64,000 bases of DNA, taken from contig OZ241982.1 in NCBI GenBank assembly GCA_965204335.1, positions 2,815,956 to 2,879,955 of the forward strand, given 5' to 3'. Numbering within the stretch: position 1 is the stretch's first letter; every line of letters begins with the position of its first letter. Positions 9,140 through 22,068 of this stretch are shown piece after piece. This stretch comes from Dehalococcoidia bacterium. GTDB taxonomy: Bacteria; Chloroflexota; Dehalococcoidia; Bin125. The translations under genes and the position numbers were made by a program. Below the pieces are notes generated by a model. The model searched no databases and was not told where the DNA came from. It saw only the letters and a list, made by a program, of their open reading frames with translations.

Positions 9140-10867
9140 TCAACGAAATCCCGACTTCTGGGGGCGCTGGAGCGCCATCGAACGGGCGAGCGGCGCGACG
9201 TCGCGAGCGCCGTTTGCCCACGAGCCGTTTGCCGACGCGCCGTTCCTCGCGATTGCTGCGGCGGTAGCGGTAGCGGGAGCGGGAGCGGACGGTTGCTCGA
9301 CCGGCTTGCCGTCTTCCCACTGCATCTGCGTCTGGCGCTGGCGCTTCGGCACGAGGATCCAGCCGACGACGCCGGAGATCAGCGCGAAGATGATCCCGAA
9401 GCGCATCGTGTCCCGGATCGCCTCGACGAACGACTCGCGCAGGACGAGTTGCGTCGGTCCGAGGACGGCCTGGTCGAGCGTGGGCAGCACCTGCTGCGCT
9501 GCGCCAATCCCGTTGGCGAGGATCTCGACCGAGTCCTCGGCGATGCCAAGCGGCGTGAGTCCCGAGCTCACACCCGAGGAGTACACGGCAGCCGCGAACG
9601 ACCCGAGGATCGCGATCGCCAGCGTGGCGCCGAGTTGGCGTCCCGCGTTGTTGACCGCCGACGCTTTGCCCGCCAGGTCGACCGGCACCGAGGCCATCGC
9701 GGTGTCGGTGGTGGCGGGCATGTGCATCGCGCCGCCGATGCCGAGGAACGCCAGACCCAGTCCAACAATCCAGTACGGCGTATCCACACCGAGAACGAAG
9801 CTGAACAACAGCAGCGCGCCGCCGCCGTGGACGGCCGGAGCCCAGAAGAGCATGAATCGAGGGCCGAGCCTGGGTAACAGCCTGGCCATGATCGGAGCGA
9901 AAATCATCATCGCCAGGGCGAGCGGCATCAGCCGAGCGCCGCTCTCAGAGGCCGACATCCCCTGCACGAGCTGGAAGAACTGGGGCATGTAGAACATCAC
10001 GCCCATCAGGGCGAACATGATGAAGAACATGCCGACCATCGAGCCGGTGAAGTCCCGCTGCTTGAAGAAGGCCATCGGCAGCAACGGTTGATCCGTGCGC
10101 CGCTCGATCACGATGAACAGCAGCGCGGAGACGATCGCGACCGCGAATGAGCCGACGATCAGCGGGTCGGTCCAACCCTTCTGAAGGCCCTCGATGATCG
10201 CGAAGACGATCGCCACCATGGCGATCGTTCCGGTGATCGCGCCGGGCACGTCGAGCCTGGTGTGCTGGAGCGAGCGCGACTCGGGCACGGCGGCCATCCC
10301 GAGCATGCACAGCGCGGCGATCGGCGCAGGTACCCAGAAGACGCCGGCCCAGCCGATCACATCGACGAGGATGCCGCCGACCAGCGGTCCGAACGCCATC
10401 CCGAAGCCCATCGCCCCGGCCCAGATGCCAATCGCCCGGCCGCGCTCTTCTCGCGGGAACACGGCGGTCAGGATCGAGAGCGTCTGGGGGATCACCAGGG
10501 CGCCGCCCAGACCCTGCAGTCCGCGACCGACGATCATGAAGTTGGCGTCGGGCGAGAAGGCCACCGCGATCGAGGCAACGACGAAGATGGCCATGCCGCT
10601 GATCAGGATCTTGCGGCGGCCAAATCGATCGCCGAGCGCGCCGGCCAGCAGCAGCAGCCCGCCGAAGATCACCATGTAGGCGTCGGCGACCCAGAGCGAT
10701 TGCGACTCCGACATCTCGAACGCGCGCTTGATCGCGGGCAGCGCTGTGTTGATGATCGTCGCGTCGAGCTGGACCAGCATCTGGGAGCCGGCCAGGACGA
10801 GCAGGATGACCCAGCGTCGACGCGGCGTGAAACCCGTTGCGCTGTCGCCGGGCGCCTGAGCGGTCAT
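9140..10867 (-). CDS. MFS transporter, DHA2 (EmrB/QacA) family
   Basis: LDATIINTALP, GALGDRFGRRK motif A, about 14 hydrophobic segments. Confidence 0.92.
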   Translation of the reverse strand: MTAQAPGDSATGFTPRRRWVILLVLAGSQMLVQLDATIINTALPAIKRAFEMSESQSLWVADAYMVIFGGLLLLAGALGDRFGRRKILISGMAIFVVASIAVAFSPDANFMIVGRGLQGLGGALVIPQTLSILTAVFPREERGRAIGIWAGAMGFGMAFGPLVGGILVDVIGWAGVFWVPAPIAALCMLGMAAVPESRSLQHTRLDVPGAITGTIAMVAIVFAIIEGLQKGWTDPLIVGSFAVAIVSALLFIVIERRTDQPLLPMAFFKQRDFTGSMVGMFFIMFALMGVMFYMPQFFQLVQGMSASESGARLMPLALAMMIFAPIMARLLPRLGPRFMLFWAPAVHGGGALLLFSFVLGVDTPYWIVGLGLAFLGIGGAMHMPATTDTAMASVPVDLAGKASAVNNAGRQLGATLAIAILGSFAAAVYSSGVSSGLTPLGIAEDSVEILANGIGAAQQVLPTLDQAVLGPTQLVLRESFVEAIRDTMRFGIIFALISGVVGWILVPKRQRQTQMQWEDGKPVEQPSAPAPATATAAAIARNGASANGSWANGARDVAPLARSMALQRPQKSGFR

Positions 10868-11331
10868 GCCATGCGCCAGCGCGGTTGAGCGAGGTCGTCG
10901 CTGGTCTGCTCAAAGACCACGCGCACCCGCGCTCCAATCTCCATCGTTCCCCCCAGCGGGGCATCGACGACCGCGCCCATCAGCTTGATCTCGGGCATGT
11001 CGTCCAGCTCGACGAGCGCGACGAGGTACGGGCCGAACTCGCGCAGGGCCGGGTGCGCAGGGTGCACCACTTCGACCCACGAATAGACCGTGCCCGTGCC
11101 TGCCGACTCTTCCCATTCCATCTCAAAGCTGTAGCAAGCATGACAGTTAAGCTCGGGCGGATACTGGCGCACGTCGCAGTCGGCTTCGGCGCAGCGTTGC
11201 ACGACGAGTCGGCCCTGTGCGGCGGCGGCGAAGTAGCCCGCGTTGGTCGGATCGTCGGGATCCGGCACGGTCATGCCTTCGGGAAAGAACGGTGAATCCA
11301 GGAACTCTGGATTGGGCCTCGAACTCGTCAT
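10864..11331 (-). CDS. DUF35 Zn-ribbon/OB-fold protein (acyl-CoA-binding thiolase partner)
   Basis: QRC...C...YPP...CHAC, GTVYSW, PYLVALVEL. Confidence 0.9.
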   Translation of the reverse strand: MTSSRPNPEFLDSPFFPEGMTVPDPDDPTNAGYFAAAAQGRLVVQRCAEADCDVRQYPPELNCHACYSFEMEWEESAGTGTVYSWVEVVHPAHPALREFGPYLVALVELDDMPEIKLMGAVVDAPLGGTMEIGARVRVVFEQTSDDLAQPRWRMA

Positions 11332-11374
11332 AGCGCGAGGGTAACGCGTTGCCTGCCTAGTAGCCTGACTCGGC

Positions 11375-12397
11375 ATGCGCCGACTGACCGTACTCGCCCT
11401 GCTGCCTCTCGTGATCTGGTTCGGCATTGCCCGGCCGGCCGCGGCGGACGCTCCGCTGTGCGCGCTCTCGACCGACTTTCAACGCGAGGTACTGAACGTT
11501 GACGCCGTCCTCGGCGCCGCCGTCTACGACCTCAAGACCGGAACGATGTGGAGCGGCGGTCACTCGGGGCCGTACGCGTTGCACAGCGTGGTCAAGCCGC
11601 CGATTGCCTGGGCCGTTCTGAGCGACGCCTACGACGAGGGACGCGAACTGACCGAGTTGCAGCGCGACGCCCTGTTCTACATGGTCGCCTGGTCACAGAA
11701 TCCCGATGTCCTGACGTTGCTCTCGATGATCGGTGGTCTGCCCGGCCTGACCGAGTTCTACGAGCGCTGGGGTGTTCCCGAATTGGTCGAACTGACGCAT
11801 CGCAGCCGCTGGGGCGCGAGCCTGGCCGAACCGGTGCACCTCGCGCGTCTGTTCGCCGCCCTGGCAATGTCCGAATCGGTGCCCGACGACGTGCGGGCTG
11901 ACGGCTTCGATCTGCTCCGCGAGGTCGTCGACAACCACCGCTGGGGCGCCACGATTCCGGAGCGCATGCTGCCCGGCTGGGAGTCGCTGATCAAGACCGG
12001 CAACTTCACGATCCCCGAGTCCGAGGACGACGACCCGATTGCGAAGATCAACCCGCGAAACTATCAGGACGCGGCTCTGCTGATTCGCGACTTGCAGCAG
12101 GCGGAGGCGGAAACAGAGGCGGAGGAGGAAGAAGGGGACACCCCGCTCAAGTCGCAGGCCGGCAAGATGCGCGCGCTCGTCCGGATGAACAGCGCCGCCA
12201 TCTGGCTGGGTCCCCCGTGGCTGGGCAGCGAACCGCGTTATGTCGTGACGATCATGCAGGAGAGCTTCATCGGCTGGTCCGGTTCGCGGAAGTTGCAGAA
12301 CCAGATCGGCGAGATGCTCGCCCATGCGATTGTCGAGCGGGAAGCCGGCCGCTGGTCACGGCCGACCAACCATTGCCTCAAGCGCGCGCTGTCCTAG
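11375..12397 (+). CDS. Secreted serine hydrolase, class A beta-lactamase/PBP-like fold
   Basis: Signal peptide; SVVK (SxxK), SQN (SxN) and KTG motifs in order. Confidence 0.78.
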   Translation: MRRLTVLALLPLVIWFGIARPAAADAPLCALSTDFQREVLNVDAVLGAAVYDLKTGTMWSGGHSGPYALHSVVKPPIAWAVLSDAYDEGRELTELQRDALFYMVAWSQNPDVLTLLSMIGGLPGLTEFYERWGVPELVELTHRSRWGASLAEPVHLARLFAALAMSESVPDDVRADGFDLLREVVDNHRWGATIPERMLPGWESLIKTGNFTIPESEDDDPIAKINPRNYQDAALLIRDLQQAEAETEAEEEEGDTPLKSQAGKMRALVRMNSAAIWLGPPWLGSEPRYVVTIMQESFIGWSGSRKLQNQIGEMLAHAIVEREAGRWSRPTNHCLKRALS

Positions 12398-12422
12398 AGC
12401 CGCGCTTGTACAGGCGGTTCAG

Positions 12423-13634
12423 TCAGTTGCGGAAGATCGCCGACGAAATCGGGGCGGAGGCCGGTCCGGCCGCGACGATACAGGTTCGTGCGCCATCAAC
12501 CGGGTTGGGTGAATCGCCGCGTAGCTGCCGGACCGCTTCGAGGGCGAGATTGAATCCGTGGGTGTAGGCCTCGGAGAGGTTGCCTCCCGATGTGTTAATC
12601 GGGAACTCTCCGGCGTGGGGCGCACCCGGTTCGGCGACCTGCCTGTTTTCGAGCCGCCCGCCTTCGCAGAATGGGCCGCCGTCACCAACCTCGCAGAACT
12701 TGTGGTCCTCGAACGAGGTCAGGACCTGGCCGGTGAAGTTCTCGTAGAACTGGCCGCAGTCGATCTCCTCCGGTCCCATGCCGGCGGCCGTGTAGAGGCG
12801 GTCGACCATGGTCGTGTAGTTCGAGCTCATGAAGTCGTCGTGCCAGAAGCCGTCGACGACGTTGCCCTGGCGGTGTCCGGAGCCCTGCACCGACGCCGAC
12901 AGATACACCGGCGTGTCCGTGAAGTCGCGGGCAATCTCGGCGGTGGTCAGGATCATCGCCGCCGCGCCGTCGGTCTCCAGGCAGCAGTCGTAGAGGCGGT
13001 ACGGGTCGGCGATCATCCGAGAGTTCTGGTGGTCGTCGAGCGTGATCGGGCGGCCGTTCATGACGGCGCGCGGGTTGTTCTGGGCGTGCTTGTTCGCGGC
13101 GACGGCGATATGGCCCAGCTGGTCCGAACGGGTGCCGTACTCGTACATGTGTCGCTGCATCTTCATCGCCAGGAACTGCGCCGGCGACATCAGGCCCTGC
13201 GGCACATTGAAGGCGTATTGTCCGCGCAGACGTCCGCCGCGACGGGATTGCCCGAAGCGTCCGAACTCGCCCTGCGCGAGGGCTCGGTAGACCACCACGA
13301 AGTTGGCGTAGCCGGCCACGATCCCTGCCGCCGCGTTGCCGATGGCGGCGCAGACGCCGCCACCGCCTCCGCCGTACACCATCGAAGCGAAGGCGTAGTG
13401 CGGCAGATCGAGTGCGGTTGAGAGCCGATTGGGGTCGTTGCGGTCGGCGGAGTAGGAGGAGAACCCGTCCAGCATCCTCGGCTCAAGCCCGGCATCGGCG
13501 CAGGCGGCGAGGATCGCCTCGAGCGCGAGACGGAATTCCGGACGACCGATCCGCCCGTGCTTGGTGTACTCCGTCTCGCCGACGCCGATCACGGCGACCC
13601 GGTCGCGGATATGGCGGTCATACTCGTAGGCCAT
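12423..13634 (-). CDS. Ltp2/SCP2-type thiolase-family protein
   Basis: AVIGVGET, NPRA, DCCLETDGAAA, YENFT, INTSGGNLSEAY, EAVRQLRG. Confidence 0.9.
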   Translation of the reverse strand: MAYEYDRHIRDRVAVIGVGETEYTKHGRIGRPEFRLALEAILAACADAGLEPRMLDGFSSYSADRNDPNRLSTALDLPHYAFASMVYGGGGGGVCAAIGNAAAGIVAGYANFVVVYRALAQGEFGRFGQSRRGGRLRGQYAFNVPQGLMSPAQFLAMKMQRHMYEYGTRSDQLGHIAVAANKHAQNNPRAVMNGRPITLDDHQNSRMIADPYRLYDCCLETDGAAAMILTTAEIARDFTDTPVYLSASVQGSGHRQGNVVDGFWHDDFMSSNYTTMVDRLYTAAGMGPEEIDCGQFYENFTGQVLTSFEDHKFCEVGDGGPFCEGGRLENRQVAEPGAPHAGEFPINTSGGNLSEAYTHGFNLALEAVRQLRGDSPNPVDGARTCIVAAGPASAPISSAIFRN

Positions 13635-13715
13635 CTCAGCCTCCCTCAATCATGGCAAGGCTAGGTGATCGCAGCGCCTATCCTCGACAGGCCAGCAACA
13701 AGCAAGGAGCCGACA

Positions 13716-15008
13716 ATGTCCGACTTTGCCAATCTTCCTTCCTCCGACCCTGCATCGCTGGGGCTGGACCCGGACCGCCTCGCCCGGGTGGACGCCCGCA
13801 TGGCCCAGGCCGTCGAGAACAGCGAAGTCCCGGGTGTGGTCACGGTGCTGATCCGGCACGGTCACGTCGCGCACGTGTCGTCGCATGGGTACCTCGACGC
13901 CGAGCGGCAGAACCCGTTGCCGATTGACGCGCTGTTCCGCATGTACTCGCAGACCAAGCCGGTCACGGCGGCGTTGACGATGCAACTCCAGGAGGACGGC
14001 GTCTTCTACGTCGACGAGCCGATCACCAAGTGGCTGCCGGAGTTTGAGAATCGTCAAGTGTTGGCCCCCTTCGACCCGCCCAACAAGGTCCGCGGACAGG
14101 GTCTGCTCATGGGTCAGACGGTGCCGATGGTTCGCCAGATCACGATCCGCGATCTGCTCACGATGACTTCCGGTCTGCCCTCGTTCGGCAACATTCCCTC
14201 GGCCATGTTCCCGCTACTCGAGCCGGCCTGGAGCGGGACCGAATTCGGGATCACCAATCCGGGCGTGGTCGACACGTCGGTTTCGGCCGAGACGCGCGTG
14301 CTGCAGATGGCGCAACTGCCCAACGCGCGACAGCCCGGCGCGGCCTGGGAGTACGCCGCCGACTTCGACGTCCTCACCCTGTTGCTGGAGCGGGCGACCG
14401 GGCAGAACCTGGACGAACTGTTCCAGGAGCGCATCTTCGGCCCGCTCGGCGTCGAAGGCTGCGGCTTCTACTGTCCGCCCGAGGACGCCGACCGCCTCGT
14501 CACCAATCACCACTGGTCGGAGGAAGGCGCGCTCAACCCCGTTGAACGTCCGGAGAATTCGCACAAGGTGCGCGAATCGCTGGGTCAGCAGATCTCCGGC
14601 AACGGCCTCTATGGCGGCGTGCTGATGACGCCGGCGGCCTACACCCGATTCGCCGCCATGCTGCTCAACGGAGGCGAGCTCGACGGCCAGCGAGTGCTGG
14701 GTCGCAAGACGATCGAGCTGATGACGGCCAATCACCTCGGCGCGATCTGCGGCACCGAAATCGACCTCACCGGCCCGGGTTTCGGCTTCGGGTTCGGCTA
14801 CGCGGTCCGCGACCGGATCGCGGGGACCGCGTACCCCGGCAGCATCGGCACCTACGGCTGGGGCGGAGCCGCCGGCACCTGGTTCTTCGTCGACCCGGCC
14901 GAGAACCTCGCCGGCCTCTTCTTCACACACGTCTTCATGTACCAGTTCAACCCCGCCGCCTACCTCGAAACCGACTTCGAAAAGGGCGTCTACGAGGCGT
15001 TGATCTAG
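13716..15008 (+). CDS. Serine hydrolase, class C beta-lactamase/EstB-like family
   Basis: FRMYSQTK (SxxK), LLTMTSG, PG..WEY, YGWGGAAGTWFFVDP; AAGGAG RBS. Confidence 0.9.
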   Translation: MSDFANLPSSDPASLGLDPDRLARVDARMAQAVENSEVPGVVTVLIRHGHVAHVSSHGYLDAERQNPLPIDALFRMYSQTKPVTAALTMQLQEDGVFYVDEPITKWLPEFENRQVLAPFDPPNKVRGQGLLMGQTVPMVRQITIRDLLTMTSGLPSFGNIPSAMFPLLEPAWSGTEFGITNPGVVDTSVSAETRVLQMAQLPNARQPGAAWEYAADFDVLTLLLERATGQNLDELFQERIFGPLGVEGCGFYCPPEDADRLVTNHHWSEEGALNPVERPENSHKVRESLGQQISGNGLYGGVLMTPAAYTRFAAMLLNGGELDGQRVLGRKTIELMTANHLGAICGTEIDLTGPGFGFGFGYAVRDRIAGTAYPGSIGTYGWGGAAGTWFFVDPAENLAGLFFTHVFMYQFNPAAYLETDFEKGVYEALI

Positions 15009-15016
15009 ACAAGAGA

Positions 15017-15424
15017 TCATGTCCGGCGCGGCGGCCCAACTAACTCCGGGAAGTAGCTCTCATAGAAGCCGCGATCTCTGGTCAGAAAGGCATCGGCCCT
15101 GAGCGGCGCGTGAGCGCCGATCATGAAGTCGGGCAGGATGCGCGTGCGCGGTCCACCGGCCCGGCGGTACAGCGCCCAGCGGCGTCCGGCTTCCCAGGCG
15201 ACGTCGGAATCGATCTCTGATCGCTGAACGCCCGCGTCTCGTAACGCCTCGTCGAGCCTGGCGCGGTCCCGAAAGTTTGGGACGAGTTCCGCGTAGGTGA
15301 TTGCTGAGGCGATCACCTCGCCGGCCGACAGCGCCGTGGCAATCTGCTCGCGCGACTCCGATTGATTGACGGCGTTGGCGATGAACAGGTCCAGCAGGAC
15401 ATTCGTGTCGACCGCGGTGATCAT
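15017..15424 (-). CDS. vapC: VapC-family PIN-domain toxin
   Basis: AVDTNVLLD, AEL, DFMIGAHA, LTRD. Confidence 0.9.
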   Translation of the reverse strand: MITAVDTNVLLDLFIANAVNQSESREQIATALSAGEVIASAITYAELVPNFRDRARLDEALRDAGVQRSEIDSDVAWEAGRRWALYRRAGGPRTRILPDFMIGAHAPLRADAFLTRDRGFYESYFPELVGPPRRT

Positions 15425-15657
15425 CTACCGCGGATTTCCTCGATGTAGGCATCCACATCGTTTGGCGCAACGCCTGGAATATCGAATCCTTGCAGGATGC
15501 CGGTCACCTCGTCGAGCTGTTCCTCAATCGAGGCGCTCTTGCGGATGAGGATGCCGTCTTCGGTCCCGGAGATCTCCACCTCAACCCCGCATTCGAGCCC
15601 GAAGCGGTCGCGCAGTTCCTCTGGGATCGTGACCTGGCCCTGCTCAGTGACTCGCAT
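15421..15657 (-). CDS. AbrB/MazE/SpoVT-family antitoxin
   Basis: RVTEQGQVTIPEELRDRFGL; 4-nt overlap with vapC; GGAG RBS. Confidence 0.88.
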   Translation of the reverse strand: MRVTEQGQVTIPEELRDRFGLECGVEVEISGTEDGILIRKSASIEEQLDEVTGILQGFDIPGVAPNDVDAYIEEIRGR

Positions 15658-15814
15658 GACTCGCTCCGCTGTCTCAATGCCGACGCATCGTTCAGCGTAC
15701 CGGGAAGTCGGCGACCGCGATGGGGTGCCAGGCGATGGCATTGGTTGCGAAGGTGTCACCCCGGCAGGTGCGGGAGTCTTCGGGAGGGAGACCAGTCAAA
15801 GGGCGCATATTGGC

Positions 15815-16987
15815 TCAGTCCCCAATCGACCGAACGGGGAAGTCCCTGGCCGGGTGGGCTTTGAGGACCTCCTCGTCCAGGTCGATACCCAGCCCCGGGG
15901 CCGTGGGCAGGGTGATGTGGCTGTCTTCGACCTCGAAGGCGGGGCTGGCGGCCTCCTGGCCCCAGGGTTCGAAGTTGACGAAGTACTCGGTGATGATGAA
16001 GTTGGGCATCGTGGCGGCGGCGTTGAGCGTGGAGGCGAGCGCGACGGTCGTGGAGTTGTAGTTGTGCGGCGCGACGGCGACGAAGTAGATCTCGGCCATG
16101 GCGGCGATCTCGGTCAGTTCCTTGATCCCGCCGACGTTGGCGACGTCGGGGTTGATGATGTCGGCGGCGCGCTGCTCAAAGGCCTCGCGGAATTCGAACT
16201 TGGTGTACAACTCCTCGCCGGTGACGGTGGGGATGTTGATCTGCGCTGTCGCGGCGGCGAGCGCGGTCATGTTCTCGGCCCAGACCGGTTCTTCGAACCA
16301 GAACGGTTCGTACTCCTCGACCATCTGCGAGAGCCGGACGGCGTTGGAGGGGCTGAGCCGGCGGTGGATTTCGAGCAAAACGTCGACCTCGGGACCGACG
16401 GCTTCGCGGACGGCGCGGACACGCTCGGCGGCGAGGCGGAGTTCCTTCATCCCCACGTAGCTGCGCCAGCGGCCGGGGACGGGGTCGAACTTGAGGGCGG
16501 TGAAGCCTCGCTCGACCATCGCCCGGGCCCGGGCCTGGAGTTCTTCGATATCGTCCATCTTCGCCCAGCCGTTGGCGTAGACGCGAAGCCGATCGCGCAC
16601 GGCGCCGCCGAGCAATTGGTGCACGGGCATCCCGGCGCGTTTTCCGGCCAGGTCCCACATCGCCTGTTCGACGCCGGAGACGGCCGAGTAGAGGTCCATC
16701 GCGCCGCGGCGGTTGCCGAAGTCGTTGTAGATGGCGTCGGTCCACGGTTTGATTCGCGCGGCGTCCCAGCCGACGATGTAGCGCCGCATCGCTTCGAGGT
16801 GCGCCACAATCTGGATGTCGCGGTCCGACTGGGTGTAGCACTCGCCCCAGCCGTGCAGCCCGTCGGCGGTTTCGAGGCGGACGAAGCAGAGGTTCTTGCC
16901 GGCGATGTAACGGTCGGGCTGGCCGCTGTCGGGCGTGGTCGGGTGGATCAGGTAGTGGCGCAGGTCGACGATGGTGGAATCGGACAT
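15815..16987 (-). CDS. Mandelate racemase/enolase-superfamily dehydratase (galactonate dehydratase-like)
   Basis: GWGE, AMWDLAGK, YANGW, KFDP, WFEEP, GEE, PD..NVGG, APHN, PGLG. Confidence 0.9.
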   Translation of the reverse strand: MSDSTIVDLRHYLIHPTTPDSGQPDRYIAGKNLCFVRLETADGLHGWGECYTQSDRDIQIVAHLEAMRRYIVGWDAARIKPWTDAIYNDFGNRRGAMDLYSAVSGVEQAMWDLAGKRAGMPVHQLLGGAVRDRLRVYANGWAKMDDIEELQARARAMVERGFTALKFDPVPGRWRSYVGMKELRLAAERVRAVREAVGPEVDVLLEIHRRLSPSNAVRLSQMVEEYEPFWFEEPVWAENMTALAAATAQINIPTVTGEELYTKFEFREAFEQRAADIINPDVANVGGIKELTEIAAMAEIYFVAVAPHNYNSTTVALASTLNAAATMPNFIITEYFVNFEPWGQEAASPAFEVEDSHITLPTAPGLGIDLDEEVLKAHPARDFPVRSIGD

Positions 16988-17057
16988 GGACGTGCTCGCA
17001 ATCGATGATGAGTCGGGTCAAGGCAACGCTCCCACAGTATCGGTGTCCGGCGGGTGA

Positions 17058-18455
17058 TCATCGGCCTCTCCAGCGGGCGTCTCGGCCGACCGGCTGCCGC
17101 ACGATTTCGATTCCCGGCAGCTTGACGGCTTGGGGAACCTCCTGGAGCAGTTCGTGCATGTAGCGGTCGGCGTCGAGCAGATCGTCGTGTCTCTTGACCG
17201 GTTTCGGGCCTCCGCGCGATTCGCCGGCCCAGCGGTACTCCCTCATCCGTTCCGGGAAGCGCTCCAGGTTGGGCGTATAGAACGAGCCCGGCGGATCCGC
17301 CCCCAGGCGATCCTGTACCAACGAGATGCCCCAGGCGACCGATCCGTCTCCGCCCCGACTCGGCACGACGTCGATGCGCCGCCGCCGCTGATGGTCAATC
17401 CAGGCGCTCTGCGAGCGATCGGCGCACCAGCGGATGTGTCCATAGACGCTCTCGCAGCGGCGCTGCCATTGCTCCAGGCGCTGCATCACGCCCTCTCCCC
17501 GTGCCTCGAACTCGTCCAGCCGGATCAGCACATCCGGACCGCACGGCGCATCCGGCCCTGTGATCCCCGCGACGATCCCGGCCGTGTAGTGGGCTTGTTC
17601 GCTGAGCCCACCGAAGTCGAGCCCACCGGCATAGCGGGCGAAGTTCGGCAGCCCCCCCGTCCAGGCATGCAACCGAGGCTCGAAGCTGGAGTAGATCTGT
17701 CCCGCGAACGCGTCGAACCGGCCCTCGATGAACCGCTCCACCCAATCGCCTCGGTGCAGCGCGCGCTGTTGCTCCGCGTAGTTCCCGGGCAGGTACGGGT
17801 TGTCCGCAATCCGCGCCGGCACGAACATCACGCGACCTGCTGCCAGCGCCAGCGACTCCTCATCCAGCTCCCGTCGCACGAACCAGCGCTCGAACCAACC
17901 TGGCCACGGGTTCGAGGCGGCGACGAACCAGCGCTCTTGCTGCGCCGGATGACGTAGTCGGGTCAGCAGCATCTGCGCGGCCTCCTCCGCCACCTCGCCG
18001 CCCTCGTCGACAAACACCGACCCGTACTCCTGTGATCCCAGCCCGGTCCACGCCGAAAGATGCCGAAAGTTGATCGTCGAGCGCGCCGCTCCATCGCTCA
18101 GACTCACCTCGACCTGGTGCGTCGGTGACTCCCGCCGTTCTCGAATCAGGTGCTCCGGACATCGGCGGTAGAACTCCGCCATCGTCGTCGAATGCAAGTC
18201 CGTGTAGTGCTGTCGGGCGACCAGCACATTGTTGCCTGGATGCAACAACGCCGCATCCAGCGCCAACTCCACGATCGCCCTCGTCTTCCCTCCTCCCATC
18301 GCGCCTCCATAGCCGATCAACGACACGCCTGCCGCATCGCCCTCACTCAGCATCGAGTACAACTCCAGCTGTCGGGCCGTCGGGCAAAACTCCCGAGCTT
18401 CATGCAATCCGCCCACACGCCTCATCATCCGCTTCCCCATCAGCGCAACAGCCAT
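17058..18455 (-). CDS. Phage terminase large subunit (PBSX/Terminase_3-like), orphan
   Basis: Walker A YGGAMGGGKT, Walker B VFVDEGGE, RLR, ASNP coupling motif, DNPYL, RNase H-like nuclease GLDFG...ADRS...HDDLLDADRY; GGAGGGAG RBS. Confidence 0.9.
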   Translation of the reverse strand: MAVALMGKRMMRRVGGLHEAREFCPTARQLELYSMLSEGDAAGVSLIGYGGAMGGGKTRAIVELALDAALLHPGNNVLVARQHYTDLHSTTMAEFYRRCPEHLIRERRESPTHQVEVSLSDGAARSTINFRHLSAWTGLGSQEYGSVFVDEGGEVAEEAAQMLLTRLRHPAQQERWFVAASNPWPGWFERWFVRRELDEESLALAAGRVMFVPARIADNPYLPGNYAEQQRALHRGDWVERFIEGRFDAFAGQIYSSFEPRLHAWTGGLPNFARYAGGLDFGGLSEQAHYTAGIVAGITGPDAPCGPDVLIRLDEFEARGEGVMQRLEQWQRRCESVYGHIRWCADRSQSAWIDHQRRRRIDVVPSRGGDGSVAWGISLVQDRLGADPPGSFYTPNLERFPERMREYRWAGESRGGPKPVKRHDDLLDADRYMHELLQEVPQAVKLPGIEIVRQPVGRDARWRGR

Positions 18456-18495
18456 GCCGACTCCCTCCGTTGCCTACAGCTCGACATCTACCTAC

Positions 18496-18509
18496 AGTAC
18501 GTCAGTTCT
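18496..18509. promoter_or_regulatory. Putative LexA box, one mismatch (AGTAC-GTCA-GTTCT)
   Basis: One substitution from AGAAC-N4-GTTCT; about 40 nt upstream of the terL start. Confidence 0.5.
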
Positions 18510-18553
18510 ACTTCCAATGCCCCCACGTGCTCCGTCTACCCCGATACTTCTAC

Positions 18554-18567
18554 AGAACTGATGTTCT
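18554..18567. promoter_or_regulatory. Putative LexA (SOS) box AGAAC-TGAT-GTTCT
   Basis: Perfect GAAC-N4-GTTC palindrome of the Gram-positive/Chloroflexota type; abuts a TACCAT -10-like hexamer at 18570-18575. Confidence 0.72.
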
Positions 18568-18609
18568 CATACCATTGACCTCACCCTGGAGTTACGGAAC
18601 GGACAAGAC

Positions 18610-18966
18610 ATGACCAACCCCACGCCACAGGCCATCCAGCAGCGCTACTGGGAACTCGCCAACAGCCCCAGCGAACGCGGCTACGTCCAGGTTCGGGCCC
18701 TCGACTCACTCTCTCGACTGCTCGATCTCTTCCCCCGGCCAAAGCACACCGCCTTCTTCGCCGTGCCCACGCCCGAGCCCGCGCCACAGCCCCTTGACCC
18801 CTCCGTCCGACCCGCCGACGTGGTCCTGATGAGCGACAAAGACCTCGACGCCCTGATGGTCAGGGAAGAAGCCGATGCCGCCGCGCAGACCGCGGCCAGG
18901 ACCGAATCCGAAGACGACGATGAAGACGACGAACCTTCCAACTCCGACGAAGATGAACCTCCCTAA
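18610..18966 (+). CDS. Small protein resembling an HTH-less terminase small subunit, with acidic tail
   Basis: QVRALDSLSRLLDLF resembles the TerS K-ALELLGK-LGMF helix; MSDKDLDAL resembles TerS C-terminal LSDEEL segments; divergent from terL. Confidence 0.55.
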   Translation: MTNPTPQAIQQRYWELANSPSERGYVQVRALDSLSRLLDLFPRPKHTAFFAVPTPEPAPQPLDPSVRPADVVLMSDKDLDALMVREEADAAAQTAARTESEDDDEDDEPSNSDEDEPP

Positions 18967-19077
18967 TCCCCCGCTCCCCGAGGATCGCGAGCGATCCCCC
19001 CACCCCGACCCGGCGTTTTTTTCTTTCGCCCTCCCCATCCTTCCCGGCACGATCGCGGGGTCAGCGGGGACGGGGAG

Positions 19078-19128
19078 CCCCCCTCTGTCCCGACGGGACA
19101 TCTCCCCCCGCCCGAGGCGGGGGGAGAG
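19078..19128 (+). repeat. Family-B palindromic repeat
   Basis: CCCCCCTCTGTCCCGACGGGACATCTCCCCCCGCCCGAGGCGGGGGGAGAG, between convergent genes. Confidence 0.85.
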
Positions 19129-19141
19129 CGGAAGTGGGCCG

Positions 19142-21022
19142 CTAACGCGAGTAGCCGGGGTCTTCGGATTCGTACTCCTCGGCGTTGGCGCCCATGGCGA
19201 AGAGGAGCTTGGCGAAGTCCTGACCCGCCTGGGTGTCGCGGAGGTCGCGGGGCAGCTCCTCGAACCAGTATGCGATCTCGTCCAGGTGCTCGGCGGCGAG
19301 GTTCATCGTGCCTTCGCTGAGACCGTCCTGGCCGAACCAGCTGTAGCGGTCGGCGGCCAGCGCGACGACCGAACCGAGGTCGAGCAGGGCGTCGTCGCCG
19401 AAGCGGGACACGCCGCTGACCAAGTCGACCTGCTGGCGGTTCGACTCGTCCGCCATCGGGGTCAGCCAGCGCAGCTCGATCTCACCGAGATCGATCACGT
19501 CCTCTCGCAGCGCGTCGGCCGTCAGTTCGACCTCGAAGAACATGGTCGTGGCCGAGCCCATCGGAATCTCGGCGAACTCGCGGCGGTCCTGCTCGAAGTT
19601 GCGGTCCGCGGTGACGCGGTTCTCGTAGCCGACCAGCCGCCAGGCGAGCACCGAGTCGTCGTCCCAGCGCACCTGGGCGCGGGCCTGGTCGGCGAACGGG
19701 ATCGAGAGCGCCAGCCAGTTCTCGCGGCTGAACGTCGAGCGGGCCTGGGCGACGTCCTGGAGGTAGCGGTACCAGCCGTTGCCGTGCTGGGCGAGTTGCT
19801 CGAGCAGCACGTCGTTGTAGTTCTCGATGCCGACGCCGACGGTGATCAGACGCAGCGGATTGGATTCGTCGCGGTCCTCTGCGGTGCGCAGGATGGCGAA
19901 CGGGTCGGTGGCGTCGACGTTGGCGACGCCGTCGGACATGAGGATCACGTAGTTGTAGGCATCGGGCCGGTCGCGGCGGATGTCGTCGGCCAGCTCCACG
20001 CCGAGGTTGAGGCCGGCCTGCACGTTGGTCGAGCCGGTCGGAGCCAGGCGATCGATGATTCGCCGAATGCCGAGGTTGTCCGGGTGCTGATGGCGCTCGC
20101 TGGCCAGGATGTTGTTCGAGAAGAGCACCACCGCGATCCGATCATCGCGGCCGAGCCCCCGGCGAATCGATTCGGCGGCGGCTCGGGCGATCTCGACTCG
20201 ATTGCCCTCACGCATCGAGCCGGACGCGTCGAGCACCAGCGTCACGTTGAGCGGGGTGTTGTCGACGAACTCGGGCGCCTGCGTGGCGATCCGGACCAGG
20301 TGGAGGTCGTCGTGCAGCGGATGCTCGACGATCTCGGTGGTGACGGCGAAGCTGTCGGTCGCGTCGGGCAGTTCGTAGCTGTAGTTGAAGGCATTGATCC
20401 ACTCTTCGGCTCTGACCGACGCCGGTTCGATCCGGTAGCCGGCCTCAACCCAGTTGAGGGCGAGGAAGTACGACGTGCGGTCGACGTCGAGCGAGAACGT
20501 GGACGTGTCGTCGTCGACGGTGTCGCGCCAGCCGGTGGTGGCGTAGTCCTCGAAGTTGGTGGAGCCGGGCAGGGAGCGGCGCGGCGTGCGGCGCTCCTCG
20601 CTGGATCGCTGTTCACGCTGTTCGCGGCGGGAGCGGGAGCTGTCGGACGAGGCCTGCTGAGCCTGTTCCTGCTCCGCGGCCTGCTCGGCCTGTTCTTCTT
20701 CTTCCTCGTACTCGGCAACCGCTTGCTGCTCTTGTTGTTGGGCCCGTTGTTGGGCTTGCTGGGCGACGGCCTGTTGTTCCTGCTGTTGGTAGGCCTCCTC
20801 TTGCTGTTCCTGGTGTTGCACCGCCTGCTGTTGTTGCTGCTCTTGTTGCTCAACCTGTGCCGCAGCCTGTGCGACGCGGGTGGGCTGCTCGCTTTCAGCC
20901 TGTTCCGCGTCGTCGCTGCAGGCGGCGGAGAGCATCGCCGCGGCGACCGCCAGGATGATCAATGGCGGCGCGAGGATGCGAATCCACCTCCGGGTGTTGG
21001 TTCTGGTCTGGCTCTGGTTCAC
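19142..21022 (-). CDS. YfbK-like VWA-domain lipoprotein with Gln/Glu-rich linker
   Basis: AGGAGG + GTG at 21022; LSAAC lipobox; STFSLDVDRTSY, VRAEEWIN, DASGSM MIDAS, SDGVANV, RLVGYENR. Confidence 0.9.
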   Translation of the reverse strand: MNQSQTRTNTRRWIRILAPPLIILAVAAAMLSAACSDDAEQAESEQPTRVAQAAAQVEQQEQQQQQAVQHQEQQEEAYQQQEQQAVAQQAQQRAQQQEQQAVAEYEEEEEQAEQAAEQEQAQQASSDSSRSRREQREQRSSEERRTPRRSLPGSTNFEDYATTGWRDTVDDDTSTFSLDVDRTSYFLALNWVEAGYRIEPASVRAEEWINAFNYSYELPDATDSFAVTTEIVEHPLHDDLHLVRIATQAPEFVDNTPLNVTLVLDASGSMREGNRVEIARAAAESIRRGLGRDDRIAVVLFSNNILASERHQHPDNLGIRRIIDRLAPTGSTNVQAGLNLGVELADDIRRDRPDAYNYVILMSDGVANVDATDPFAILRTAEDRDESNPLRLITVGVGIENYNDVLLEQLAQHGNGWYRYLQDVAQARSTFSRENWLALSIPFADQARAQVRWDDDSVLAWRLVGYENRVTADRNFEQDRREFAEIPMGSATTMFFEVELTADALREDVIDLGEIELRWLTPMADESNRQQVDLVSGVSRFGDDALLDLGSVVALAADRYSWFGQDGLSEGTMNLAAEHLDEIAYWFEELPRDLRDTQAGQDFAKLLFAMGANAEEYESEDPGYSR

Positions 21023-21133
21023 GTGGTCCTCCTGACCGACTGCTTCGGGGCGGCAGATTGACGACCGGCTGTCGCCCCGTTGCAGGGTTAGACGATGTAA
21101 ACCACGCAATAGTTCCCGGAATCGGCGAACGGG

Positions 21134-21190
21134 CCCTCACCCCCCGACTTCTCGGGGGCAGGCTCCTGCCCTCTCCCTCGGGGAGAGGGA
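21134..21190 (+). repeat. Family-A repeat variant with an inserted hairpin
   Basis: CCCTCACCCCCCGACTTCTCGGGGGCA...CCCTCTCCCTCGGGGAGAGGG. Confidence 0.75.
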
Positions 21191-21252
21191 GACGGAGGGG
21201 AGTGCGGCTCGCGTATCATTGGACCAACGGATGAATCTGAAATGAGGGCACA

Positions 21253-22068
21253 ATGGCTAGCGCTCCGACTCGCGTGCATGTGGTGACCGGTGGATTTCCG
21301 CCGGGACAGCACGGCGGGCACGACATGGACTTTGCCCGGCTGCGGCTGCTCGACATGCTGTACTCCGACGGCAACGTCCGCGCGACGACCGGCAACGACT
21401 TCACCGACATGTGGAAGTGGCTGCCCGTCACCGACGTGCTGATCACCTACACGGCCGGTCCCTACGCCGACGACCCGCAGAACGAGATCCTGCGCGACTG
21501 GATCGGCAACGGCGGACACTGGGTCGGCCTGCACGGCACCTCGGGCGGCAAGGCGGCCCGCATCGGCGACGGCAAGCGCGCCATGGTCAAGATGGAGCAC
21601 CACGAGACGCTGGGCGGGTTCTTCATCAACCACCCGCCGATCAAGCGATTCACGGTCGACGTGAAGAGCGTGGACTCGCCGATTCTCGAAGGCCTGCCCG
21701 AGCAGTTCGACGTGATCGACGAGCCGTACATGATCGAGATCACGGACCGTCCCAACACGGACATCCTGCTGACGGCGCCGATCGGCCCGGACAACTATCC
21801 GGACTTCGGCTTCGACTACGAAGAGGACACCGCGCTCGAGGCGGACGGCATCACGCGGGTGTTCGGCTACACGCGCGGGATCGGGGAGGGCGGAGTCTGC
21901 TACATCGCCCTGGGCCACTGCCACTCACCGCTGACCAACTCGCAGCCGTTCGTCGATGAGAACGCTCGCGACGAGAACGGCGACATGCCGAGGACGCTGC
22001 GCTTCACCTGGGAGACCGAGGAGTACGGTCAGTTGCTGACCAACACCCTCAATTGGGCTCGGGGCTGA
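21253..22068 (+). CDS. ThuA-like (class I glutamine amidotransferase-like) domain protein
   Basis: GHD, GGHWVGLHG, LGGFFINHPP, DEPY, G.G.V.YIALGH. Confidence 0.82.
   Translation: MASAPTRVHVVTGGFPPGQHGGHDMDFARLRLLDMLYSDGNVRATTGNDFTDMWKWLPVTDVLITYTAGPYADDPQNEILRDWIGNGGHWVGLHGTSGGKAARIGDGKRAMVKMEHHETLGGFFINHPPIKRFTVDVKSVDSPILEGLPEQFDVIDEPYMIEITDRPNTDILLTAPIGPDNYPDFGFDYEEDTALEADGITRVFGYTRGIGEGGVCYIALGHCHSPLTNSQPFVDENARDENGDMPRTLRFTWETEEYGQLLTNTLNWARG

Follow-up and report, generated by a model that had tools for sequence, protein, structure and literature searches.

A two-gene terminase module resident in the chromosomes of one Chloroflexota family, with predicted LexA-type control

The genome of a Dehalococcoidia bacterium (Chloroflexota; GenBank assembly GCA_965204335.1) carries, within the 64,000-nucleotide stretch of contig OZ241982.1 that was analyzed here (positions 2,815,956 to 2,879,955; hereafter the window), a gene for a large terminase (terL) and a divergent gene for a small partner protein (terS'), which together appear to be one copy of a two-gene terminase module resident in bacterial chromosomes. 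Distribution, phylogeny and synteny show a module whose capture from a tailed phage predates the divergence of the genera sampled in this Chloroflexota family, and that has long been resident in that one bacterial family, where it is intact and, in the genus of the source genome, multi-copy and site-changing. The account favored here, offered tentatively and as somewhat short of an even chance, is that the pair is under the control of LexA and probably uses capsids supplied in trans.

Prophages and viral contigs are called with the help of large terminase genes, which count as a hallmark of tailed viruses. In the present case cellular chromosomes have long harbored several copies of an intact and selected terS'–terL pair with no detectable virion genes, a caution against counting TerL matches as viruses. 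Searches of the open-access literature returned no description of a stand-alone chromosomal terS–terL module or of terminase domestication in Chloroflexota. A first-pass annotation of the window had proposed an orphan terminase pair retained by the host for some packaging-related or DNA-cutting function; its observation is confirmed below, and its interpretation is partly supported.

An intact terminase pair kept by purifying selection

The terL gene of the window (copy A; 17058–18455, minus strand) encodes a protein of 465 aa whose N-terminal part is an ATPase and whose C-terminal part is an RNase-H-like nuclease, as read from Pfam, PHROG and NCBIfam matches. The protein belongs to Pfam Terminase_3 (7.7e-11; 42.4 bits against a cut-off of 23.2), lies above the curated threshold of Terminase_6N (3.5e-7; 30.6 bits against 22), and matches the PHROG family phrog_2, 'terminase large subunit', at 8.9e-25. 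Against the NCBIfam model for the PBSX-family TerL equivalog (TIGR01547) it scores 36.4 bits, under the cut-off of 105, and by this measure it is a distant relative of that equivalog and stands outside it. Among solved structures, the chains closest in sequence are 5oe8 and 5oea ('large subunit terminase'; E 2e-11), both of which match the nuclease half. The ATPase half holds GYGGAMGGGKT, D150/E151 and AASNP, which we take to be Walker A, Walker B and the coupling motif, and the nuclease half holds GGLDFGG (D280), CADRS (D346) and DDLLDADRY (D424–D430), whose acidic residues presumably form the nuclease active site by analogy with other large terminases. A Shine–Dalgarno sequence, GGAGGGAG, stands 6 nt 5' of the ATG, and the first-pass description of a full-length TerL with every ATPase and nuclease motif and a ribosome-binding site is borne out.

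When 5.8 billion proteins were searched, 207 relatives of this TerL emerged among 8000 scored candidates. The best 120 of the 207 all had E<1e-150 and 50–84% identity, and those that carried names were all proteins from Chloroflexota metagenome-assembled genomes (MAGs); the relatives often lie on megabase contigs, several to a contig. Among other genomes of the genus, 17 of 18 held one to five or more copies (range 0 to 5 or more), and the TerL family was absent from all 12 genomes drawn from 12 other families of the class. In a further draw of 251 class genomes it was present in 10 of 13 other genomes of the same taxonomic family (genus g1, 7/8; g14, 2/2; g16, 1/1; g15, 0/1; g17, 0/1) and in none of the 237 genomes that represented 71 other families. 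A tree of 38 cellular copies and three viral outgroups placed the g16 and g14 copies at the base and gathered the copies of the genus in one clade (support 99); because the viral branches are very long, the position of the root is approximate. The nearest TerL among 50,697 cultured-phage records is 24–28% identical, and the nearest among the 2.9 million contigs of IMG/VR, on a viral contig denoted L086, is 41% identical to copy A and 45% identical to copy B, a second copy in the same genome. Module TerLs are thus far from known phage TerLs and do not nest among those of temperate phages, and by sequence distance the gene is not one of a circulating phage.

Intactness was assessed on 32 full TerL copies from 19 genomes, all of which proved to be open reading frames. 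Their alignment has 171 invariant columns, including GYGGAMGGGK, D150/E151, AASNP, D280, D346 and DDLLDADRY, with D280, D346 and D424/D425/D428/D430 unchanged in all 32. Nei–Gojobori dN/dS for terL ranged from 0.10 to 0.37 over 14 pairs, among them young pairs with dS of 0.04–0.4, for which saturation is no issue; copy A against its nearest relatives gave 0.19–0.22, and the small gene gave 0.15–0.60 over 10 pairs. These ratios show a terS'–terL module kept by purifying selection rather than drifting neutrally. A surface loop between the ATPase and nuclease halves (residues 300–308 of copy A) is 13–74 residues longer in 15 of the 32 copies, and the extra peptides, always in frame, read like translated repetitive extragenic palindromic (REP) or miniature inverted-repeat transposable element (MITE) repeats, for example SPLSPRERAGVRA. 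In copy C, the third copy of the genome, the extra DNA (C1:1132175–1132267, on the genome's single contig) matches the REP-like repeat of that genome at 92%. That such insertions preserve the reading frame argues for selection for an intact TerL. The TerL paralogues also have variable C-terminal tails.

Since the genes are of phage origin, it might be supposed that the copies are independent remnants of decayed prophages. However, every one of the 32 copies is intact with dN/dS well below 1, the same two genes are always paired and never accompanied by another phage gene, and the family is monophyletic and far from phages. In the source genome no contiguous phage genes adjoin copies A, B or C, all of which lie among metabolic genes, and no contiguous prophage stands beside the window copy in what is a single-contig assembly. 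On the strength of the intact copies, the constant pairing, the low dN/dS and the monophyly, decay from prophages is excluded, with only the slightest residual probability granted to it. The idea of a host-retained module, by contrast, is upheld by the restriction to one family, the basal position of the other genera, the synteny of one site across genera (described below) and purifying selection.

The small partner protein and its predicted control

The small gene of the window (18610–18966, plus strand) encodes 118 aa, in which the family alignment (A1; 29 proteins) distinguishes a helical core at the N-terminus, then a variable linker, then an acidic tail whose last residues are DEDEPP. The protein has no match in Pfam, PHROG, NCBIfam or PADLOC. 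Judged by its conservation it is a real gene, because homologues adjoin all 32 TerL copies and its dN/dS against its three closest relatives is 0.18–0.27. In an iterated search with hidden Markov models (HMMs) the adjacent homologue was co-oriented and upstream in 27 of the 32 cases, usually overlapping the start of terL, and divergent in five. The divergence from terL (minus strand) that the first-pass annotation had remarked on is therefore real and is the minority form, seen besides the window in genomes G011, G008 (twice) and G018. Common to the 29 aligned proteins is a helical segment at the N-terminus with the consensus NGPAYVQ..A...LAR..GLF, followed by the variable linker and the acidic tail, the end of which reads acidic-x-acidic-(P/V/Y)-(P/L/H) in 23; five proteins of the B type read instead TRLRAWELLGR.IGLF...GGAPVVRLTP. 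Across cellular modules the protein, here called TerS', has 60–140 aa.

The B-type proteins carry the connection to known small terminases (TerS). When their profile was aligned with hhalign to the TerS of the nearest viral contig, the match had a probability of 82% and an E-value of 1.1e-5 over TerS residues 112–153, and the whole-family A1 profile met the same helix at E 1.2e-3 over 18 columns. A search of 1.84 billion representative proteins with the B-type alignment profile gave 44 matches at E<=1e-3, of which 29 were aligned (short family members and three long multi-stretch proteins were left out); 20 of these 29 belong to Pfam Terminase_2 (PF03592) and none belongs to any other family. 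In full-length Terminase_2 proteins the match begins past the first 60–90 residues, which are presumably occupied by the helix-turn-helix domain of such TerS proteins. The small proteins start at the segment that corresponds to TerS residues 112–153 and so have no N-terminal DNA-binding domain of the Terminase_2 kind. These results support the identification of the small protein as a Terminase_2-type small terminase without its N-terminal DNA-binding domain, and the partner had indeed been described as HTH-less and TerS-like in the first-pass annotation; for the A-type protein of the window the identification is indirect, through its tie to the B type in the family alignment. A comparison of the A1 profile with the sequences of the Protein Data Bank gave nothing meaningful, and Pfam and PHROG scans of the 29 small proteins gave scattered chance matches only.

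Two leads about the small protein may be set down here. In the ESM Atlas, clusters of small viral hypothetical proteins were found at 0.94 and a cluster with 21% Terminase_2 members at 0.87. In addition, the acidic, proline-containing tails (DEDEPP, DDDPL/W) loosely resemble the C-terminal tips of single-stranded DNA-binding proteins (SSB), a speculative likeness; the source genome (G000) has four SSB paralogues (C1:734717, 2487306, 2487838 and 2682218), with tails that end DLPFE or GDQPF.

The divergent control region between the two genes (18456–18609) holds two boxes of the form GAAC-N4-GTTC, one facing each gene. The first, GTACGTCAGTTC (18497–18508), has one mismatch and lies 42 nt from the terL start codon; the second, GAACTGATGTTC (18555–18566), is perfect, is accompanied by a -10-like element, CATACCAT, lies 55 nt before the small-gene ATG, and is a predicted LexA operator. 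About 55 nt upstream of small genes in general stands (A)GAAC-N4-GT(T/A)C, and after it comes a -10-like TATAC/AAT element. Of 29 small-gene upstream regions, 25 contain a box with no more than one mismatch and nine a perfect one, against 5.2% and 0.19%, respectively, of random 140-nt windows of the genome, a frequency that measures conservation and is no independent test because the upstream regions are homologous. Four of the five divergent modules have at least two boxes, one per gene.

A Chloroflexota LexA uses GAAC-N4-GTTC. In 19 of 24 genomes, which represent 10 genera of the family, a perfect box, usually GAACACACGTTC, lies no more than 330 nt 5' of the DNA-binding domain of LexA. The presence of the box upstream of both the small genes and lexA leads to the prediction that the module is under SOS control, which we regard as probable, though well short of certain. 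In one account, GAAC-N4-GTTC is named as the motif that LexA has in B. subtilis and Gram-positives (PMC3323433), and LexA-regulated prophage and SOS genes of this Gram-positive type (the Cheo box) likewise have the motif by a -10-like element, with the motif also upstream of lexA (PMC3323433). This lineage differs from the Cheo-box organisms in that similar motifs also precede non-SOS genes. A scan of 16900–19250 with strict sigma-70 and terminator consensus sequences found no sites, and there was no Rfam match within 16800–19400.

Palindromes like GAAC-N4-GTTC followed by TATAG/TATA were also observed at C1:743733, 2259935, 1825784 and 690572, among others, where they stand upstream of rplI, class II ribonucleotide reductase, ABC ATPase and radical-SAM genes. 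Such sites before non-SOS genes may reflect either a broad regulon or a second factor with a similar site.

Copies, sites and insertion polymorphism

The source genome is a single contig of 3,151,661 bp, 96.6% complete, and a six-frame search of it found three full TerL copies that are 57–64% identical to one another. Copy B (3,007,489–3,008,871, minus strand) is 64% identical to copy A, and copy C (1,131,194–1,132,765, plus strand), with its extra in-frame segment, is about 57–63% identical to it. A small gene adjoins each of the three, and the small proteins of A and C end EDEPP. There are, in addition, two remnants (C1:781672–782310 and C1:1861053–1861790; 86% and 94% nucleotide identity to copy C), each consisting of an intact small gene and approximately the first 45 codons of terL, and both stop at one and the same point directly before Walker A. 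An HMM of the small proteins also found three solo paralogues (C1:336422–336748, 688146–688466 and 992555–992884) of 106–109 aa and about 65% mutual identity, which start MPNPYH.RA.IDRLWR and end EDDDPL/W, have no TerL adjacent, and carry a module-like GAAC-N4-GT.C box upstream; two weaker matches lie at C1:2248612–2250828 and 832859–833422. With three full TerL copies, two remnants and at least three solo small genes in the genome, the earlier picture of a lone orphan pair does not hold. The neighbors of copy B are two CoA-transferases, DUF885 and DsbA-like thioredoxins, and a PHROG scan of ten of its neighbors gave no match; those of copy C are PhoU, two ABC ATPases, a beta-eliminating lyase and a MobA-like transferase.

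The flanking open reading frames of 30 loci were clustered and checked further by tblastn. One site, B, in which DUF885, TerS', TerL, one to four genes for 94-aa proteins and a CoA-transferase follow one another, recurs in at least 17 of the genus's genomes; in one g14 genome, too, the terminase copy has a CoA-transferase fragment next to it. Core B-site TerLs are 80–84% identical to copy B, and the flanking DUF885 and CoA-transferase are 78–83% and 79–89% identical, a resemblance that is expected under vertical descent; 11 of 12 B-site copies fall in one clade. The other recurrent sites are C (four genomes), D (five), E, F and A (two each), with five unique sites besides. Copies outside site B group by genome and not by site, and the nearest relatives of copy A, 69–76% identical, are found in other species at sites B, F and C and at a unique site. 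In genome G005 the copies at sites C and D share 94.9% nucleotide identity over exactly 2064 bp, that is, the small gene and terL, in a stretch that begins about 516 bp upstream of terL and reaches 36 bp beyond its stop codon. The borders of this pair show neither terminal inverted repeats nor target duplications, as would mark a transposon or insertion sequence (IS), and older copies are too diverged to be judged for border repeats; the pattern fits recent movement and gene conversion between resident paralogues alike. Taken together, the comparisons of loci show a module that has multiplied to several intergenic sites in the genus and whose copies have been homogenized or exchanged within genomes.

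At the site in the window, terL is followed on its 3' side by a co-oriented gene for an MR_MLE enolase-superfamily (sugar-acid) dehydratase (15815–16987, minus strand), and the module is bounded on its 5' side by a gene for a vWF_A/VWA/YfbK_C protein (19142–21109, minus strand), Pfam matches that agree with the flanks named in the first-pass annotation. The MR_MLE gene is 89–96% identical across 22 full-length matches in other genomes of the genus. Twenty-four loci were compared at this site, eight of them uninformative. In at least nine relatives the site is empty, and the VWA gene abuts MR_MLE at a distance of 87–135 nt; at the empty sites of G012 and G031, 66 and 53 nt separate the VWA stop codon from the MR_MLE start codon, and the gap contains a terminator-like hairpin. 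Three genomes have inserts of 650–750 nt that include REP-like repeats, and two of the 24 loci have a 58%-identical VWA paralogue 328 nt away. TerL is present at the site only in the source genome and in G035, and the two proteins are just 58% identical. Relative to the empty sites the whole insertion spans approximately 17006–19142, that is, 2.1 kb and two genes, and the comparison shows the window copy to be a lineage-specific insertion absent from most close relatives. Absence from relatives, which the first-pass annotation would have counted against itself, is thus true of this copy in at least nine close relatives and not of the module. Contigs from two other studies contain copy A and its junction with MR_MLE at about 98% identity, and one contig, from run X1, joins 17003 to 19139 as the empty form would, with weak support (side 30). 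Among sequencing runs found to contain the locus, none was listed as RNA.

A REP-like palindromic repeat of about 60–70 nt, rich in G+C, lies at the edge of the insertion just before the VWA stop codon (19071–19140). It has a 12-bp G+C hairpin (z -2.79) and 134 BLAST matches in the genome, and its copies flank many genes, including sites beside modules. The repeat was considered as a marker of element ends and rejected, as it has more than 130 matches genome-wide.

These patterns might be those of a selfish, mobile two-gene element in which the nuclease and ATPase of TerL serve as the mobility enzyme, inserting by hairpin-forming REP or terminator sequences. Such an element would be consistent with the varying presence of the module at conserved sites, with the near-identical copies at two sites of one genome, which cease to match exactly at the module borders, with the 5' remnants and a copy number of 0 to 5 or more per genome, and with insertions that replace terminator hairpins and abut REP-like palindromes. 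However, the borders of the youngest duplicate lack terminal inverted repeats and target duplications, the same few sites recur across species while copies cluster by genome, and gene conversion between old paralogues would explain the pattern equally well; the B lineage, moreover, looks vertically inherited, and we know of no terminase that transposes DNA. A selfish element is accordingly judged unlikely.

Site B also contains, convergent to terL, a gene for a 94-aa protein with a single C-terminal transmembrane helix (L005:9194–9478; G000 C1:3007194–3007478), of which one to four tandem diverged copies occur per genome. The protein has no Pfam, PHROG, NCBIfam or PADLOC match, and it may be part of the ancestral module or a mere neighbor.

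Capsids in trans and other possible functions

A six-frame search of the source genome with Phage_portal, SPP1_portal, Phage_portal_2, Phage_capsid, Phage_cap_E and PhageMin_Tail found no match, with positive controls that matched each time, in keeping with the first-pass remark that no portal, capsid or tail gene could be recognized in the window; three tyrosine recombinases are present in the genome, all outside the window and far from the modules. Over 26 genomes of the genus the capsid model matched one and the portal model matched two, and among the 24 high-quality genomes there was no HK97 capsid or portal match. The non-TerL open reading frames of the three nearest viral contigs had no tblastn match in the source genome.

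Three side observations concern phages of the lineage. The sole strong pairing of a portal (6.5e-44) with an HK97 capsid (1.8e-28) in the 26 genomes lies at G007:C209:147–3538, on a contig that is short and belongs to a fragmented MAG whose contamination is 5%, and may represent a phage of the genus or a binning artefact. The viral contig L086 (47 kb) encodes over 9283–21321 a Terminase_2-like TerS, TerL, and then open reading frames of 735, 698 and >1319 aa without a PHROG match; with a GC content of 65–69%, like that of the host genus, it is a candidate phage of the lineage. A 60-kb low-GC island in the source genome (C1:2603000–2664000; 57–62% against 65.8%) was considered as a prophage and set aside, as the starts of its open reading frames suggest a serine-recombinase/Dnd-like/IS island: by their first residues they are large serine-recombinase-like, IS-like transposase, DndB/DndC-like and cysteine desulfurase-like.

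A host-resident terminase for close comparison is that of the gene transfer agent (GTA) of Rhodobacter capsulatus, RcGTA, which consists of gp1 (TerS) and gp2 (TerL) and is, like the module, phage-derived with an intact TerL. [quoted passage not shown] In RcGTA the terminase genes are part of a structural cluster that also holds portal and capsid genes, whereas none was detected here in the genome or genus, and the present module differs further in being multi-copy, in changing sites and in having a TerS of the Terminase_2 type. It is nevertheless conceivable that the module serves as the motor that packages DNA for a dispersed GTA-like particle, the structural genes of which are located elsewhere and diverge too far to be recognized by the models used. 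The lack of a DNA-binding domain in TerS is the proposed hallmark of a GTA terminase (PMC6854486), and the module shows long vertical retention under purifying selection. Against this stand the absence of any match to three portal, two capsid and one tape-measure family in the genome, the zero of 24 high-quality genomes of the genus with capsid or portal matches, the lack of homologues in the genome of the neighboring open reading frames of the nearest viral contigs, and the several diverged terminase paralogues, unexpected for one particle. A dispersed GTA, one of the options raised in the first-pass annotation, is weakened by the lack of HK97 capsid and portal matches in those genomes and is held to be quite improbable; what the module shares with GTAs is a TerS without a DNA-binding domain and vertical inheritance, and host-encoded capsid, portal and tail were not found.

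The terminases of pac-type phages (a Terminase_2 TerS with a Terminase_3, PBSX-type TerL, as in L086) belong to the same protein families as the module and have the same overlapping terS–terL order as 27 of the 32 modules, and the L086 TerL is 41–45% identical to the module proteins. The L086 TerS, canonical (phrog_51, 5.8e-30) and directly upstream of TerL, differs in retaining its N-terminal domain (190 aa) and in having large morphogenesis open reading frames after it, whereas cellular modules have a TerS' of 60–140 aa with an acidic tail and metabolic neighbors. Phage satellites, such as phage-inducible chromosomal islands (PICIs), capsid-forming PICIs (cf-PICIs) and PICI-like elements (PLEs), are likewise chromosomal, and are described as having terminase-related genes and as exploiting or inhibiting helper packaging. 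Satellites possess integrase, replication and excision functions of their own and are packaged as units; the module has two genes only, with no recombinase nearby, no excision signature and family-level vertical descent. In place of the 10–15-kb island with integrase, replication and regulatory modules that is typical of a PICI, the window has a 2.1-kb insertion of two genes. None of the PADLOC defense models matched TerL or four small proteins.

In the account favored here, the motor would probably work on capsids that are not its own. LexA at the GAAC-N4-GTTC operators would repress both genes, and DNA damage would induce them. TerS' would form a ring through its retained oligomerization core, and its acidic C-terminal tail would recruit or regulate TerL. 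By analogy with what is proposed for the GTA terminase, the TerS'/TerL holoenzyme would then cut and translocate DNA without sequence preference, since the sequence-reading domain is gone. Support for the steps so far is moderate. In the most speculative step, an infecting or induced phage would supply in trans the procapsids on which the motor docks, a step proposed because neither genome nor genus has a detectable capsid or portal gene, and host DNA filling these procapsids would both spoil the phage burst and move host DNA, modules included, between cells. Capsids in trans would explain why a translocase and nuclease have been retained, why the paralogues have diversified with variable C-terminal tails, and how the module has spread to the same sites in different species, that is, by flank homology. 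If capsids are indeed so supplied, the module would be a minimal new kind of phage parasite or defense and would drive gene transfer in a lineage that is abundant and uncultured.

A stronger form of the same idea, which we consider rather unlikely as a whole, is that of a terminase-only device for both counter-phage action and gene transfer. In it, LexA-controlled and sequence-blind pairs of TerS ring and TerL would seize procapsids, load them with host DNA, abort the phage and yield transducing particles that carry modules to new cells by flank homology; diverged paralogues, of which there are three here, would match different portals, and the solo acidic-tailed small proteins would be decoys that tie up phage or resident terminases. 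Were this true, it would represent a new class of capsid-less, non-excising phage parasite or defense kept at the level of a family.

Several observations tell against a LexA-controlled module that uses capsids in trans. Perfect boxes are not enriched genome-wide: there are 47, and control four-base palindromes number 11–46 for eight of nine and 184 for GATC-N4-GATC. The recA gene has imperfect boxes only, similar motifs stand 5' of rplI, nrdJ, dnaE, an ABC ATPase gene and a radical-SAM gene, and the genes downstream of other box-like motifs are mostly not SOS genes, for which reasons the LexA assignment rests on conservation and not on a defined regulon. As to the small protein, Pfam PF03592 matched none of the 29 even at E<=10, PHROG scans of the 29 gave a single match to phrog_51 at an E-value of only 0.17, and the window's own A-type protein ties to TerS weakly (the 18-column match above). 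The solo small genes show that the small protein can persist alone, which is unexpected for a pure packaging role. The six Pfam models miss some capsid and portal folds, so that the absence of structural genes is unproven; prophages appear to be rare in the genus, and no helper phage was recognized. Finally, g14 and g16 have a single stable copy, which is more housekeeping-like than hijacker-like.

A rival reading is a host function that needs no capsid, in which the pair is an SOS-induced, ATP-driven nuclease or translocase for damaged-DNA processing, for abortive or altruistic fragmentation of the chromosome, or for DNA export. Genome and genus offer no capsid to work on (no capsid, portal or tape-measure match in the source genome; no capsid or portal in the genus's 24 high-quality genomes), other genera stably keep a single B-type copy, B-site orthologues evolve at the rate of the flanking housekeeping genes, and the LexA-type box is present. 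Of the stress-induced DNA-cutting ATPase that the first-pass annotation had suggested, the stress-induced part gains from this box. On the other hand, the architecture of translocase and nuclease with a TerS ring is only known to work on a portal, three to five diversified copies per genome are unusual for a repair enzyme, and searches of the open-access literature turned up no precedent. A capsid-independent function is judged doubtful, with a chance that is low and far from negligible; if real, it would be the first cellular use of a packaging motor. Whether or not capsids are supplied in trans, the module is a compact system in which to ask what a small terminase does without its DNA-reading domain.

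The surroundings of the module in the window add some minor features. Base composition around it is unremarkable. Two genes from terL lies a VapB/VapC-like pair (15017–15759), in which a gene with the MazE_antitoxin fold overlaps a PIN-domain gene; no VapB/VapC match was found at the equivalent position in the 23 loci of relatives that were examined. A gene with a beta-lactamase fold lies near this pair.

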